From IMG/VR virus record IMGVR_UViG_3300028591_000129, positions 32,001 to 96,000 of that record: DNA of 64,000 nt, one strand, 5' to 3'. The stretch's first letter is position 1. Every line of letters starts with the position of its first letter. This document shows, one piece after another, positions 31,868-49,564 of the stretch. Below the pieces are notes generated by a model that saw nothing but the letters and a program-made list of their open reading frames with translations, did no database searches and was not told where the DNA came from. Made by a program: the position numbers and the translations under genes. Source of the stretch: a virus (lineage: Duplodnaviria; Caudoviricetes).

Positions 31868-32398
31868 TCAGTCGCCCTCGCGACGATACGGATAATGCAC
31901 GTCATAGTAAGTATCAAAGAACGGCTGAAAGTCATAATCATAATATACACGCCTCTTGTGACCCCCGATAGTGTAGCTTCCCGCAAGCTCCGCGTCATAC
32001 TTAATGCTCTTATCTCCCCTGTCTCTTACCGCCTGTGCAGTCTGTATCGGAATGAACCTTGTCACGTCTCGGTCAACCCACCAAACAAGTAAACCTGCTA
32101 CAACACCGCGGTGGTGGCTCGCCTCGGTCAGACCGTCCCACTGTGCATTACTGATATTTCCATAGATATGCTGTCCTGTTGGGTCGTTACTGAATATCGG
32201 AAGTCTGTTACCGTGAACTGATTTACACTCGAACATATAAAAAATACCCTGACGATACACGATAATATCGCAAGGGTTGGCAATTCCTTTAAGATACGGC
32301 GGTGGGTCGTACAGGCGCAAGGAATAGGCGTCTGTCCTATCCAACGCTTCTCTTACCTCGTCCTCAAAGGGCTTTCCTACGTTCTTCCTTTTAGCCAT
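31868..32398 (-). CDS. recU: RecU-like Holliday junction resolvase
   Basis: N.GK.FE...PCD.I.Y......FECKS...NI...Q...L PD-(D/E)xK pattern. Confidence 0.7.
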   Translation of the reverse strand: MAKRKNVGKPFEDEVREALDRTDAYSLRLYDPPPYLKGIANPCDIIVYRQGIFYMFECKSVHGNRLPIFSNDPTGQHIYGNISNAQWDGLTEASHHRGVVAGLLVWWVDRDVTRFIPIQTAQAVRDRGDKSIKYDAELAGSYTIGGHKRRVYYDYDFQPFFDTYYDVHYPYRREGD

Positions 32399-44810: not shown

Positions 44811-45725
44811 TTATTCTTTGTTTTGCTTCTTATACGTACTGCTCACTATCTTCGGTACTGCGTTCTCCCACTTCACGTTGTGGTGTACCCTCGCGTGATT
44901 ATTACCTAAAATGCCTATCTTACAAAACGACGGGCAACACATTACCGTATAGAATGACTTACAATACGTTCCCTCTGACGTGTACGGTGTTATCAGTCCG
45001 CCTTTTCGCATTCCGCCCCGCCTGTTTCTCTGCTGTGTATCGTTCTGATTGATACTTACGTCCATAACGGTCAGAAACAGGTCTCCACGAGCACCTAACA
45101 TACAATACGTGTTCACGTCTTCATTCAGTCTTCCTACGAACGTGAACGGTCTGTCCGTCGAGCATATAAAGCTGTTCATTGCCTTGCGCATAACTCGCGC
45201 CTTGAAATGTGAACCCTCTATACCGCCCATAAAGTCCCCGTTTTGCGCGATACATAACGTCTTCAGTGTCGGAATACTCTTATAATAGTCCAACAACGCC
45301 TCGAATACCACGTCAAGCTTCGTAGGAAACAATGTCTTAAGCTTCCCGTCTGCCTCGAACCTGAATTGGAACTCATAATAGTCGTCGTCAAGTACCATAA
45401 AATAAGTGTAACCAAGCCCCTTGGCGATGTCAAAGCAGGCATTTCTTGCATAAGTTGCCGAATTCCGTAACGGCACGTTGTCCATATGGTCGAACTTATC
45501 TGTCACGCTGTCCTTATCGAACTGAATTATCTTATCCTTGCCGAAACGCTTCACGTACTTGTCATATGTGTCGTCGTCACTTCCAAGCACGATATACCAT
45601 TCTCCCGTGTACCCGTACTTATTAAGAGTATCTACGGTCAGTATAAGGTCAGCATTGTGGTGGCTGATAATCAGCACGACAAGGTCACTCAAAGTCTTTG
45701 GCTTGTTTTGCAAGATTTCCGTCAT
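44811..45725 (-). CDS. GREB1/TAGT-like glycosyltransferase (putative DNA hypermodification)
   Basis: YARN..FD.A..LG..YF..LDDDY...RKAMNSF...NEDV..Y...KSFY.V motifs. Confidence 0.75.
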   Translation of the reverse strand: MTEILQNKPKTLSDLVVLIISHHNADLILTVDTLNKYGYTGEWYIVLGSDDDTYDKYVKRFGKDKIIQFDKDSVTDKFDHMDNVPLRNSATYARNACFDIAKGLGYTYFMVLDDDYYEFQFRFEADGKLKTLFPTKLDVVFEALLDYYKSIPTLKTLCIAQNGDFMGGIEGSHFKARVMRKAMNSFICSTDRPFTFVGRLNEDVNTYCMLGARGDLFLTVMDVSINQNDTQQRNRRGGMRKGGLITPYTSEGTYCKSFYTVMCCPSFCKIGILGNNHARVHHNVKWENAVPKIVSSTYKKQNKE

Positions 45726-46104
45726 TGCGGATTGCCTCCAATCTCTTTGACAGCTTCACATATCCGTTTGCTATCGCGTCGTCAAAGTCGATTAATACCA
45801 ACGCTGATTCTTCCATAAGCTTTTGCATTTCAGGCGTAGCGCTTGCATAATAATCCGCGATAAGTCCATAGTTAAATACGATATGTCGGGTCGCACCGTA
45901 ACGTAAGAACCTCTTTTCCTCGTCGGTAATGTCTGCCTCGTCTATATGCCTTAACAGCTCGTTATACTTGCGATAATCATAGCAGGCGTCGACTGACGGC
46001 GGATTATCACTCGGTGTGTATTGCGGTATCTTGAGCAATCTCGAATACTTATTATCGCCGTCCATTGCAGTACTTTGAATGGCTACTAATGGCTTCATTC
46101 TCAT
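45685..46104 (-). CDS. Partner protein of the TAGT-like glycosyltransferase
   Basis: A.RHIVFNY..IADYYA...MEESALV.ID...AI.NG; overlaps the GT gene. Confidence 0.55.
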   Translation of the reverse strand: MRMKPLVAIQSTAMDGDNKYSRLLKIPQYTPSDNPPSVDACYDYRKYNELLRHIDEADITDEEKRFLRYGATRHIVFNYGLIADYYASATPEMQKLMEESALVLIDFDDAIANGYVKLSKRLEAIRNDGNLAKQAKDFE

Positions 46105-46107
46105 ACG

Positions 46108-47154
46108 TTATTCCTCACTCTCGCTGTCCTCGTCGTCAATATCCCACTCCTCATAGTTATCCCACTCAATGTTCTCTCCGTACCACGCGTCGGATACGGT
46201 AACGTCGCACTTGATAGGCATTTGCAGTATCTCCTCGGCGGCGTGAGACATTGTCTCGGCAAGTAACTCTGAGCACTCTTTCATATTCTCTCTCGGGCAC
46301 TCCGCGATAATTTCGTCGTGTACAGGGATAAGCATTCTGAACCCCAAATCACGTAAGCGCTCGTTCTTATAAAGCTCTATCATTGCTATCTTTGTAAGGT
46401 CGGCGGCACTGCCCTGAATACGGGAATTTACGCATTGTCTCGTGGCATTGCCTATCCTCTTACTGTTATCTGTGATAACAAAATGCTCGCGCTCTGCTTG
46501 GTCAAATATCGTAAATTTCTGCTTTCTGCTCTGCGCATTCAACAGCTTTGTGATATAGTACTTTTCCTTTTGATACGGAACGGTCACGTCGGTGTTCTCA
46601 AAGTCGAGAATATCTCCGTCGGGTTCAAAACCTTTCTTCCAAGCAATCTCGTACTTGGGCAACTGCAAATCAGGAAGTCTGCGCTTACGTCCGCAAACGG
46701 TGGTAACATACCCAAGCTCGCGTGCCATCTGTAAAGACCTGTCCTCAAATGCCTTGATTGCAGGAAACGCTCTAAATACGCTGTCCTTAATAGCCTGCGC
46801 CTCTTCTTCCGTACAGCCTAACTGCTCTGCGATACTCTTAATGCCTCTTCCATACAGCACTCCAAGTAAGATACTTTTAGCCTGTCCTCTTCGCGTCTTA
46901 CCCGCGTCATACGTGTCCGTCTCTCCGTCAGCAAGCTTATCATAATGGTCGTCGGTGGCGTAATACCAATTCCCGTCTTCACCCTTTACGATAGGTGTAC
47001 CCTTGGGGAAATGCTCAAGACATTCCTCATATGATACGTGAAAAGACTTACTCGCAATCTCTGAATACAAGTCCTTGCCCTGCATAAATGTGTCGTACAT
47101 TTGACTATCGCCGTCCATACGGCACAAGGCGGCAAGGCATTTTGGTTCTTGCTG
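46108..47154 (-). CDS. polA: Family-A DNA polymerase, C-terminal frame (from QQEPK; motifs B and C)
   Basis: R..AK...LG..YG, NSRIQGSAAD, VHDE; this frame has no start codon upstream of QQEP. Confidence 0.9.
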   Translation of the reverse strand, partial: QQEPKCLAALCRMDGDSQMYDTFMQGKDLYSEIASKSFHVSYEECLEHFPKGTPIVKGEDGNWYYATDDHYDKLADGETDTYDAGKTRRGQAKSILLGVLYGRGIKSIAEQLGCTEEEAQAIKDSVFRAFPAIKAFEDRSLQMARELGYVTTVCGRKRRLPDLQLPKYEIAWKKGFEPDGDILDFENTDVTVPYQKEKYYITKLLNAQSRKQKFTIFDQAEREHFVITDNSKRIGNATRQCVNSRIQGSAADLTKIAMIELYKNERLRDLGFRMLIPVHDEIIAECPRENMKECSELLAETMSHAAEEILQMPIKCDVTVSDAWYGENIEWDNYEEWDIDDEDSESEE

Positions 47155-47162
47155 TGACCGCT

Positions 47163-47216
47163 CTAAGAGAAGTCACTTGACAGTAAGACGTAATTCTCAA
47201 CTGTTCGTAACTTCAC
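47163..47216 (-). CDS. 17-codon mini-ORF encoding the first half of polymerase motif A
   Basis: GTG AAG TTA...=MKLRTVENYVLLSSDFS then TAG; SD GAGGGGGTG. Confidence 0.7.
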   Translation of the reverse strand: MKLRTVENYVLLSSDFS

Positions 47217-48792
47217 TCATTATCACCCCCTCAACAATGTCAAATGTAATAGTAGTGTCGGTTTTCGTTATCTCGCGGATAACAACATTTCCCTCGTCAG
47301 TAACAAGTGTGTCACCCACACGCATATTATCTGCGTATGTAAATCCACCAAGCGTCTCTACGTTACACCAACGGCTCACCGTAAAATGGTTGTCCTGTGC
47401 TTCCACGTCTTCCGACGCCCTGCTCGCAACAAACATTGGTCGTATATCTTTTGCGTGCGACGGGATATTCTGCATATTAGGGTCACTTGAACTCATTCTG
47501 CCCGTATCTGCGCCGTATTGGTTGAACTTGCAATGAAGCCTGTGGTCATTCGGATTAAGACATTCAGGCAACTTATCAATATACGTTGATAAGAGCTTCT
47601 TTGCACCTCGATAGTCAAGGATAGCTTTTGTCAAAGGTGTGCCAAATGACTTAAGTATCTTTTCTCCTGTACCTCTCGGTTGCTTCCTGCTCACGCTCTC
47701 ATATTTAAGAATATCGTAGAACAGCACGGCTAACTGCTGTGAACTTCCAACCTTGATAGGGTCGTCCAACTTACAGTCGCTATGGCTTGCCTTATATGCC
47801 TCTATTTCCGCGTCATATTCGTGCAACAACGTATGGAAATGCTGTAATGCCTCTTCCTGCTTCTCGTGGTACTTGACGGACAACTCACGAGCGTACATAA
47901 CGTCCAACGATACCCCTGCGTCTTCCATATCAATGATTACGTCGATTAACGGCATTTCAATGTTAAAGAACACGTATGACACACCGTTCATACCATTACG
48001 GTCACTTAACGGCGCGTCAGGGTCATAATACAAGTACTGATACTGAAACTCGAAGTCCTCGTCAGTTATCTTTGCGTCGTGTCCTGCATACAGATAACCT
48101 ATGTTGATAGGAATAAGGCTAAACTTAACCTTGTCGAACAACTCGTCAAAGCTAAATGCGTCAGCAGTGCCCCCAAGTACGTACTTTTGGTGCAACTTCT
48201 TTAAGCCGACCTTACCCTTAATCTCATACTTCTCGTTCTCGTTAAGACACCTGTGCCCGATAGAACAGTCCCACCAACAGTGAAGACGTACCCCAATTTG
48301 GTGCATAATGACCCTTATATCGAACGGGGCGTTAAACATTATTATCTTTGTACCTGCCTCGTTAAGACGTTGTAATTCCTTTGCTACGACCTCTTTAGGT
48401 AATTGGTCGGGACATTTCTCACCCGTGATATAGTTAACGTGATTTAACGGCACATAGACCGTCTTCTCGCCCTTTACATATAAGCTTGTACCAACACAAT
48501 CGTCCAACATTGGGTCAAGTCCCGTTGTCTCTGTATCTATCGCAACCCTGCCAAACTCAATTGCCTTGGTTATATACGAATACAGCTCAATCTCATTCTG
48601 AATGCAGGCGGTCTCATTCTCGTACATTCCAAGGTTCTTAAGTACAACCGTCTTGATATTTGCGATTTGAGACGCGAGACCGCCATTACGTTTTACCGTA
48701 GTGGCGGGCTTCTTCGCGCTCTTCTTGGCTTTCTGTACGATAGCAAGGTCATTCGCCCTGTCCGAACGTGGTATTAAGCTCCTTATGGGCAT
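47197..48792 (-). CDS. polA: Family-A DNA polymerase, N-terminal part (3'-5' exonuclease and thumb) with a Hint-like tail
   Basis: IDTETTGL, FNAPFD, YAGHDA, TGRMSSSDPNMQNIP. Confidence 0.9.
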   Translation of the reverse strand: MPIRSLIPRSDRANDLAIVQKAKKSAKKPATTVKRNGGLASQIANIKTVVLKNLGMYENETACIQNEIELYSYITKAIEFGRVAIDTETTGLDPMLDDCVGTSLYVKGEKTVYVPLNHVNYITGEKCPDQLPKEVVAKELQRLNEAGTKIIMFNAPFDIRVIMHQIGVRLHCWWDCSIGHRCLNENEKYEIKGKVGLKKLHQKYVLGGTADAFSFDELFDKVKFSLIPINIGYLYAGHDAKITDEDFEFQYQYLYYDPDAPLSDRNGMNGVSYVFFNIEMPLIDVIIDMEDAGVSLDVMYARELSVKYHEKQEEALQHFHTLLHEYDAEIEAYKASHSDCKLDDPIKVGSSQQLAVLFYDILKYESVSRKQPRGTGEKILKSFGTPLTKAILDYRGAKKLLSTYIDKLPECLNPNDHRLHCKFNQYGADTGRMSSSDPNMQNIPSHAKDIRPMFVASRASEDVEAQDNHFTVSRWCNVETLGGFTYADNMRVGDTLVTDEGNVVIREITKTDTTITFDIVEGVIMSEVTNS

Positions 48793-49439
48793 TAGAACGC
48801 CTCACGTCTGCTTGAATTACCTGCGGGTGTGCGTCTCTGATACTGCTGTCCGCCACCTTCATTAGCCTCGCGTGTGTTACCGTTACTCGGGAAACTTCCG
48901 CTGTTAAGGTAAGCATTCATTTCCTCGGCTGTCTTGACCATTACGACTGTGCCTACGGGGTTCTGAACGTCGAAGTCATTAAGGGATACACCCTCTGTCT
49001 TCTCTTCCTCATAAATCTCGTAAGAAGTCTGCTGATAGCCTGCCTTACCGTGTCTCTCGATTGTGAACACGTGAGAATAAGTGTCGGGGTATCTCGAACA
49101 GATAGACGAAAGCTTACTGCCGAAGTCCTTACCTCTCTCCCAAATCTGCGTTGTGTTCGCGTCAATGTTGAAAAGCGGAATGAAGTACTTGATATTGACA
49201 TACCTGCCCGCCTTACAGAACGGGCACGCGTCAACAGGGTCTCCATAGCCTCTCAAACAGTCTACCCAACGCTTCTTTCCGTCTACCTCACATTCGTGTA
49301 CTGACTGCGGGTGAACGCTGTCTGCACCGTTGTACAGGATACGTACTCTTGCTGTGTCAAGGTCATTCTTAAGACGGAAAAAACCGCCACCGCCCTGTCC
49401 ACCAATACTGTCTGCCTGACTGATACTAAAACTCGCCAT
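48792..49439 (-). CDS. Single-stranded DNA-binding protein (gp32-like)
   Basis: FFRLK...RVR.L...H...C...CPFC...F.I.R.G pattern; adjacent to the polymerase. Confidence 0.7.
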   Translation of the reverse strand: MASFSISQADSIGGQGGGGFFRLKNDLDTARVRILYNGADSVHPQSVHECEVDGKKRWVDCLRGYGDPVDACPFCKAGRYVNIKYFIPLFNIDANTTQIWERGKDFGSKLSSICSRYPDTYSHVFTIERHGKAGYQQTSYEIYEEEKTEGVSLNDFDVQNPVGTVVMVKTAEEMNAYLNSGSFPSNGNTREANEGGGQQYQRRTPAGNSSRREAF

Positions 49440-49489
49440 TTTCTTTTCTCCTTTCACGAGTGTTTTTATTTATTTGCCCTTATAGGGCT

Positions 49490-49564
49490 TGGCGGGGGTG
49501 ACAGGAATTGAACCTGTGAGTAATGGAGTCAAAGACCATTGCCTTACCACTTGGCGACACCCCT
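49490..49564 (-). tRNA. tRNA-Gln(TTG) with encoded CCA
   Basis: Cloverleaf: GCCAAGTGGTAAGGC D-arm, CTTTGAC anticodon loop, GGTTCAATTCC T-arm, 3' CCA. Confidence 0.92.

Follow-up and report, generated by a model that had tools for sequence, protein, structure and literature searches.

The Interrupted Polymerase Gene

The stretch of viral DNA analyzed here, referred to as the window, comprises 64,000 nucleotides (nt) of a 105-kb gut phage (Duplodnaviria; Caudoviricetes), and corresponds to positions 32,001 to 96,000 of the 104,810-base IMG/VR virus record IMGVR_UViG_3300028591_000129. The minus strand of positions 46108–48792 encodes a family A DNA polymerase, PolA (Pfam PF01612 and PF00476), which is present as a single copy in the 104,810-base genome, where no second PolA was found. 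This gene is broken twice, once between an N-fragment and a C-fragment, and again within the C-fragment, where a stop-led insert of 11 nt (the coding gap) divides polymerase motif A (Table 1). The second break is the main subject of this analysis, and is probably crossed by the ribosome in a hop from one Ser codon to another.

The N-fragment combines a 3'-5' exonuclease (PF01612) with the N-terminal part of the polymerase domain (PF00476 positions 4–150) and a C-terminal extension, the tail. The C-fragment begins with a mini open reading frame (mini-ORF), whose 17 codons lie in the +1 frame, whereas the N-terminal ORF and the frame in which the gene resumes beyond the gap are one and the same. 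On the minus strand, the sequence reads AGT GAC TTC TCT (47177–47166), followed by TAG, AGCGG, and TCA, and then CAG CAA GAA CCA from 47154. A stop-led, 11-nt interruption of motif A was the central claim of the original prediction made from this sequence, and the present analysis recovered it base for base. Skipping positions 47165–47155 restores the motif, as had been proposed, given that the uninterrupted relatives read SSD(F/Y)S-QQEPK.

The catalytic Asp of motif A (GAC, 47174–47172) is found only in the frame of the mini-ORF, which is closed upstream by TGA TAA TGA (47225–47217) and downstream by the TAG of the gap. The mini-ORF is homologous to the mini-ORFs of 17–19 codons found in the relatives, and to continuous sequence in P0001, P0004, and P0021. 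The resume frame is closed by TGA at 47175–47173, and has no ATG, GTG, or TTG before QQEP. A re-reading of the sequence agreed with the original prediction on both the location of the Asp codon and the closure of the downstream frame.

Table 1. Features of the interrupted polymerase gene in the window, and of two relatives with an intervening sequence at the position of the gap.
Feature	Position	Strand	Description
PolA N-fragment ORF	47197–48792	-	531 amino acids (aa) plus TGA stop; from the ORF list and Pfam
C-terminal extension (tail) of the N-fragment	47200–47421	-	Beta domain of ~62 aa, plus 12 residues over the ribosome-binding site and mini-ORF start
Shine-Dalgarno-like sequence, GAGGGGGTGAT	47222–47232	-	Spacing of 5 nt to the GTG start of the C-fragment (47216)
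Mini-ORF, 17 codons	47166–47216	-	First half of motif A; starts at GTG and ends with the Ser take-off codon
Candidate take-off codon, UCU (Ser)	47166–47168	-	Ser codon at this position in 16/16 contigs (TCT, TCC, TCG, or AGT)
Coding gap, 11 nt	47155–47165	-	UAG (47165–47163), AGCGG, candidate landing codon UCA (47157–47155)
Rest of the C-fragment	46108–47154	-	Resumes at CAG 47154 (QQEPK...); motifs B and C; stop 46110–46108; PF00476, 168 bits
Imperfect hairpin	47154–47176	-	GUGACU/GGUCAC and CUC/GAG; take-off codon and stop at the top, landing codon in the 3' arm
Apparent group I introns located where the gap lies, each with a GIY-YIG ORF	L113 2340–3480; L116 2350–3305		

Assemblies and Strains that Carry the Gap

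The virus record is a metagenome assembly, which is the one reason to suspect a sequencing or assembly artefact, and no sign supporting this suspicion was found. A Logan contig of run X1 (the probable source run, from sheep gut), assembled independently, is identical to the window over positions 46500–47900 (1401 bases), at a depth of 15. Two further studies supplied contigs, X2 (bovine gut) and X3, that are approximately 99% identical to the window and span the site of the gap, while an interruption at this position recurs in 15 further contigs obtained from other samples. Assembly error, which the original prediction had listed among its alternatives, is excluded by the identical independent assembly and the two other studies that carry the site, and an artefact of any kind is exceedingly improbable.

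The X2 and X3 contigs lack 2 nt at position 47161, which leaves a gap of 9 nt (TAG CGG TCA) that is in frame, whereas the 11-nt gap of the window is out of frame. Despite their shorter gap, these contigs retain UCU, UAG, and UCA. Both contigs are of low depth, yet the two independent studies agree. A frame-changing indel within the gap is tolerated, and the length of the gap is immaterial. Downstream of the gap, X2 differs from the window by five substitutions, all of which are synonymous in the resume frame, with two of them falling in the E and P codons of QQEPK.

The X2 strain also has three amino-acid changes within seven codons of the tail domain (47267, 47273, and 47276), whereas eight of its 10 other substitutions in polA are synonymous. 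Evolution is faster in the tail than in the enzyme.

Gap Rules across the Relatives

The relatives of the polymerase were gathered by two protein-seeded scans, one scan with a DNA pattern, and one search of GenBank phage records; a megablast of the polA gene against 50,697 phage records recovered no near-identical phage DNA. When the homologous polA genes were compared for the arrangement D(F/Y)S-stop-gap-QQEP, 16 contigs, including the window, proved to carry an interruption at precisely this site, and their gaps comprise 13 distinct sequences. In approximately 45 distinct relatives, the polA gene is uninterrupted, with a three-residue linker (SPG or SDG, for example) in place of the cassette described below.

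The gaps displace the reading by 4, 6, 7, 8, 9, 11, 15, or 16 nt, and include all three frame relations. A stop codon follows the take-off Ser codon directly in all 16 contigs, and is TAG in 10 of the distinct gap sequences, TAA in two, and TGA in one. In the phage itself (genome G000), TAG is the rarest stop, closing three of the 95 long open frames, in comparison with 55 for TAA and 37 for TGA. The interiors of the gaps are unrelated to one another across the family, and the gap of L002 is a plain tandem duplication of 4 nt (TAGT TAGT).

The original prediction had drawn attention to the Ser codon UCU directly before UAG and the second Ser codon, UCA, before the resume codon. Both are present in the window, and the resume codon is preceded, in 14 of the 16 contigs, by a Ser triplet that belongs to the codon box of the take-off codon. 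The take-off and landing codons co-vary, with UCN being paired with UCN, and AGU with AGU, in the combinations TCT-TCA, TCC-TCA, TCG-TCG, TCG-TCA, TCT-TCC, and AGT-AGT. In these 14 contigs, the landing triplet is always the first Ser triplet of the same box that is encountered 3' of take-off. The turnover of the codon pairs and gap lengths indicates a rule that is maintained through change.

The reassignment of TAG or TGA as a sense codon was considered and rejected, because the gap of the window is out of frame, the gap of L004 contains both TAA and TGA, and the ordinary genes use all three stops.

The Upstream Break

The frame break between the N-fragment and the C-fragment, which the original prediction did not address, is of a different nature. 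In every cassette-bearing relative, a Shine-Dalgarno sequence and a start codon precede a basic mini-ORF of 17–19 codons that ends in ...SD(F/Y)S, and in most of these relatives, a whole nuclease gene lies between the N-fragment and the restart. The ORF of the N-fragment continues, in the window, through 12 further codons that cross the strong ribosome-binding site from which the C-fragment restarts at GTG 47216. This arrangement indicates that the polymerase is a split gene with a restart, rather than a frameshifted one, and that recoding is needed only at the downstream break.

A second hop or a +1 frameshift at the upstream break was also considered, given that matching GTG-to-GTG and GTT-to-GTT codons exist there at a spacing of 10 nt. 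This possibility was rejected because a ribosome-binding site with a start codon is found there in every relative, and the two ORFs are separated by a whole endonuclease gene in most of them.

In L063 (1124–3440), polA is split at the same place by two unrelated ORFs (470 and 302 aa), with neither a nuclease gene nor a gap. A ribosome-binding site is present in this locus, together with an apparent ATA or other unusual start.

Selection on the Polymerase

The ratio of nonsynonymous to synonymous substitution rates (dN/dS) in the frame beyond the gap is 0.07–0.15 in eight pairs of loci, in some of which both members carry gaps. On the tree of the C-fragments, several gap-bearing loci have a gap-free sister, and the presence of a gap is not accompanied by longer terminal branches than those of the gap-free sisters. 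These values indicate that the frame downstream of the gap is under purifying selection.

Such constraint bears directly on the possibility that the polymerase is dead or dispensable, in which case the gap would be a tolerated lesion, left by the cutting and repair of the endonuclease target, and another polymerase would replicate the genome. The tandem duplication in L002 does resemble a repair scar. However, both fragments are intact in all 16 contigs, and neither the relaxed selection nor the further lesions in the flanks expected of a pseudogene were found, given the low dN/dS, the synonymous differences between near-identical strains, and the unaccelerated rates relative to the gap-free sisters. 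As the genome also lacks a second PolA, a dead polymerase is very unlikely, and the argument of the original prediction that the intact flanks speak against decay is upheld.

The Mobile Cassette

The gap accompanies a nuclease gene in most of the loci in which it is found. A GIY-YIG nuclease gene (PF01541) is present in the cassettes of L001, L004, L052, L077, L080, L082, L090, L106, L108, and L115, and an HNH nuclease gene (PF13392) in that of L016, while the window, L002, L087, and L089 have no nuclease gene. The gap is present in all 11 of the distinct cassettes with a GIY-YIG or HNH gene, and gaps occur only in split genes. The gap-bearing loci are scattered over the tree of the C-fragments, where well-supported branches force at least six gains or losses.

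The comparison of L001 with L024 provides a close view of this mobility. The two loci are approximately 98% identical over the 1.6 kb upstream and from approximately 120 nt downstream, and L001 contains an insert of approximately 950 nt directly after the MFIA codons, which consists of the tail domain, the GIY-YIG gene, and the restart, plus a gap of 6 nt. In the approximately 150 nt around the gap, identity falls to 84–90%, which matches the expectation for co-conversion during homing. The same pattern was found between L004 and L011. The gap, by these comparisons, is part of a mobile homing-endonuclease cassette.

The tail domain is absent from the cassette-free relatives, and is conserved among those that bear the cassette. 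Its structural model is a confidently predicted small beta domain (pLDDT 82), for which the best matches to the PDB in Foldseek are inteins (gp41-1, DnaB, and RecA), although these are weak (E 0.03–0.4). The tail is probably a degenerate Hint-like module that is carried by the cassette, and may help the two fragments to associate. When the tail domain and the L082 cassette were used as queries, the only match was a fecal scaffold without annotation, MT839691.1, and no cultured phage carrier was found.

A splicing (split) intein was also considered for the tail. It was rejected, as none of the residues needed for splicing (a nucleophile at position 1, a terminal Asn, and Cys, Ser, or Thr at +1) is conserved: the residue after MFVA varies (S, R, D, K, or T), the residue before the Tyr also varies, and the +1 residue is Tyr.

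Apparent Introns at the Site of the Gap

In two relatives, L113 and L116, exon 1 of the gene ends exactly after the Ser codon, and is followed by an intervening sequence of approximately 950–1150 nt with a related GIY-YIG ORF (Table 1). These intervening sequences begin with TAA and show P1-like pairing to the exon, and the gene resumes with CAA CAA/CAG GAA CC. In Rfam, the sequence of L113 matches Intron_gpI at 36 bits (E 2e-6), which is below the gathering score of 50, and L116 has no match at the E-value threshold. No matches were obtained at the gathering threshold in L113, L116, L002, or L114. These apparent group I introns indicate that the gap occupies a homing site of intron-borne nucleases from the same family, which supports, by inference, the disruption of the nuclease target by the gap.

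The intervening sequence of L116 also has a 3' end (TAACAGAAAG) that resembles the gap of L004 (TAACAGTGAAAG). Given the apparent introns at this site and this resemblance, an intron remnant is plausible as the origin of the gap, and the gaps may have begun either as such remnants or as repair scars. The intron remnant that the original prediction had offered as an alternative may thus stand as an account of where the gap came from.

How the gap is dealt with at present is a separate question, and the same apparent introns are an argument for its removal or correction before translation, either by RNA excision and ligation (a micro-intron), by editing, or by polymerase slippage. However, 4–16 nt is too short for a group I core, and Rfam found no match at E <= 1 over window positions 45500–49500, where the insert has only 11 nt rather than the 200 nt or more, roughly, of a group I intron. 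There is also no homopolymer run on which a polymerase might slip. Models of gap excision are further disfavored because excision constrains only one Ser codon and needs no stop, whereas both Ser codons and the stop are conserved, and the re-pairing of a tRNA needs all three. Removal before translation is, on balance, quite unlikely.

A second interruption of polA was observed in L002 (2001–2747), within the NLQNIP motif. It spans approximately 750 nt, contains an HNH_3 ORF that is split into two frames, and probably represents another intron or insertion. Its HNH protein is similar to the free-standing HNH protein of the L016 cassette.

The Proposed Hop

A Ser-to-Ser translational hop over the gap, in a gene invaded by a homing-endonuclease cassette, is the best explanation of these features, and is considered likely from the sequence evidence. 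The original prediction had recognized in the window the layout of T4 gene 60, with its translational bypass, and this proposal is supported by the 16 interrupted contigs, the change in gap length between strains, the endonuclease cassette, and the purifying selection.

The process would have begun with the invasion of the sole PolA gene by the cassette, which would have split it after the fingers region, added the small Hint-like tail to the N-fragment, and supplied the C-fragment with a ribosome-binding site and a start codon of its own (GTG 47216). The endonuclease gene would since have been lost from this phage. The short insert, placed where the DNA of the gene is most conserved, between the motif A Ser codon (DFS) and QQEPK, would break up the target of the endonuclease, which is also a site of intron insertion, and would render its carrier immune to cutting.

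During translation, the ribosome would read the 17 codons from GTG 47216 and then pause, with UCU occupied by the peptidyl-tRNA-Ser and the A site by UAG, the rare stop. After un-pairing of the tRNA, the mRNA would slide by 11 nt, and the same tRNA would re-pair with UCA, with decoding resuming at CAG. The product would be a predicted C-fragment of 365 aa, with an intact motif A, which would assemble with the N-fragment. A tRNA involved in this hop must read both UCU and UCA, and would therefore be a U34 isoacceptor of the host. The phage encodes only tRNA-Gln(UUG) and tRNA-Ser(GCU) (window 49490–49564, minus strand; genome G000:C1 104107–104196), and neither reads UCU or UCA. The tRNA-Ser(GCU) reads AGY, and would fit the AGU-AGU type of gap found in L002.

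A number of observations weigh against the hop. The family members share ancestry, and the 14 matching codon pairs do not represent independent events. At take-off, the nascent chain has only 17 residues, in comparison with 46 in gene 60, and the release factor RF1 should compete at UAG; as synthetic stop-hops are inefficient, the yield of the enzyme could be low. The metatranscriptome run X7 contains pieces of the polA gene, in which the gap site is not covered. The hairpin invoked by the original prediction folds as described, at -11 kcal/mol in RNAfold for 41 nt, but it is weak (z = -1.6, with 14 of 200 shuffled sequences folding as well) and does not appear to be conserved throughout the family. 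Of the 12 relatives that were folded, eight have a similar closing helix, and in the other four (L016, L080, L089, and L090) it is absent or weak, with z near 0. The hairpin is treated here as a possible helper of the hop, rather than a requirement.

Further counterevidence comes from the gaps that contain start codons. Two loci, L089 and L186, have no matching landing codon, and have a GTG and a TTG, respectively, directly after the stop, while in-frame starts are also found inside the gaps of L082 (GTG overlapping TGA) and L090 (ATG). Given that these starts share the resume frame and lie within or beside the gap, some members of the family may use reinitiation. Under termination and reinitiation, the 17-aa peptide with the catalytic Asp would be released, the ribosomes would restart nearby, and the polymerase would consist of three non-covalent pieces, in which the mini-peptide might dock, by its N-terminus, on the Hint-like tail. 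However, in the window and eight other contigs, the resume frame offers no ATG, GTG, or TTG from its last stop to QQEP, and the Ser triplet before the resume codon, which co-varies with the take-off codon, is left unexplained. We know of no precedent for an active-site strand that is supplied as a free 17-mer, and reinitiation is considered unlikely.

If the Ser-to-Ser hop is extended to the relatives, the interrupted polymerases would form a second, independently evolved family of natural bypass, which is considered fairly probable. The PolA gaps of 4–16 nt would be translation-level "introns" that protect the target of the homing endonuclease, without the long signals of the gene 60 type. 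The skipping from Ser to Ser would take place early in a newly started chain, and the length of the gap would drift freely, even between strains that are 99% identical.

Elsewhere in the window, the gene two downstream of the polymerase (44811–45725, minus strand) encodes a TET-associated glycosyltransferase (PF20691, E 2e-32), which hints at a phage that glycosylates hydroxymethylated DNA bases.

Significance and Comparison with Known Systems

A full-text search of the literature found no published description of a case of bypass in PolA. T4 gene 60 is essentially the only case in which efficient programmed bypassing has been demonstrated experimentally. If the hop proposed here is real, natural variants of 4–16 nt in an easily assayed enzyme would provide a compact system for the study of the requirements of ribosome hopping, and homing endonucleases would have driven the evolution of non-standard decoding more than once. 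Gene callers split or discard polymerase genes of this type, which affects both the annotation of phages and the phylogenies of polymerases.

The closest known system is the gene 39/mobA/gene 60 element of phage T4, a homing-endonuclease cassette with a translational bypass of 50 nt (bioRxiv 10.1101/2022.08.31.505936, Manning and Atkins; Bonocora et al. 2011 cited there). The 50-nt insert disrupts the target of MobA, and the known bypass cassettes are all homologous and all located in Topo2L genes, the cassette being called unique (bioRxiv 10.1101/2022.08.31.505936). In both T4 and the PolA family, a cassette splits an essential replication gene, both halves have tails, and the downstream half has its own start, with a stop-led, non-coding insert placed early in this half, between matching take-off and landing codons. 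The two systems also have in common a type of endonuclease that can be exchanged (GIY-YIG or HNH), a nuclease gene that can be lost while the gap remains, and relatives that are split but have no gap, represented here by L063.

The differences are equally clear. The host gene is PolA, at motif A (PF00476), rather than Topo2L (gene 39/60), and no sequence similarity was seen between the two. The gaps are of 4–16 nt here and 50 nt in T4, and take-off would occur at codon 17–19, on Ser, rather than at codon 46, on Gly or Asp. The PolA family appears to have no conserved take-off stem-loop, and has no mini Shine-Dalgarno sequence, and its hop is a proposal drawn from sequence.

The hopping of in-frame stops has been demonstrated only with synthetic constructs (1987 work, as reviewed in PMC5009743), with no natural occurrences being known, although shorter, matched-codon counterparts of the bypass have long been presumed to exist (PMC5009743, a 2016 review of recoding). 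The relatives with a 6-nt gap (TCT TAG TCA) have exactly the form of the synthetic matched-codon "stop-hop", of which the gap of the window is an extension to 11 nt. The synthetic stop-hops were engineered and are inefficient, whereas the hop in PolA would be natural, and needed for an essential enzyme.

In the mitochondria of the yeast Magnusiomyces capitatus, Lang et al. reportedly described, in 2014, "byp" elements, which are said to be numerous short, non-coding inserts that are skipped between matching codons. The PolA gaps resemble these elements as short, non-coding inserts in protein genes, with matching codons. Unlike the PolA gaps, however, the byp elements measure 27–55 nt, belong to the mitochondria of a yeast, start with a sense codon that is unassigned, and are not known to have a link to homing endonucleases.

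A parallel to the cassette itself is found in the psbA gene of cyanophages, for which Zeng, Bonocora, and Shub are said to have reported, in 2009, a collaborative homing in which a free-standing endonuclease acts together with an endonuclease-less intron that protects the target. The PolA family is similar in that a free-standing nuclease gene adjoins the target gene, an insert at the target would confer immunity, and an apparent group I intron occupies the site of the gap in L113 and L116. In contrast with collaborative homing, the protecting insert of the PolA gene is too small to splice, and would therefore have to be dealt with during translation.

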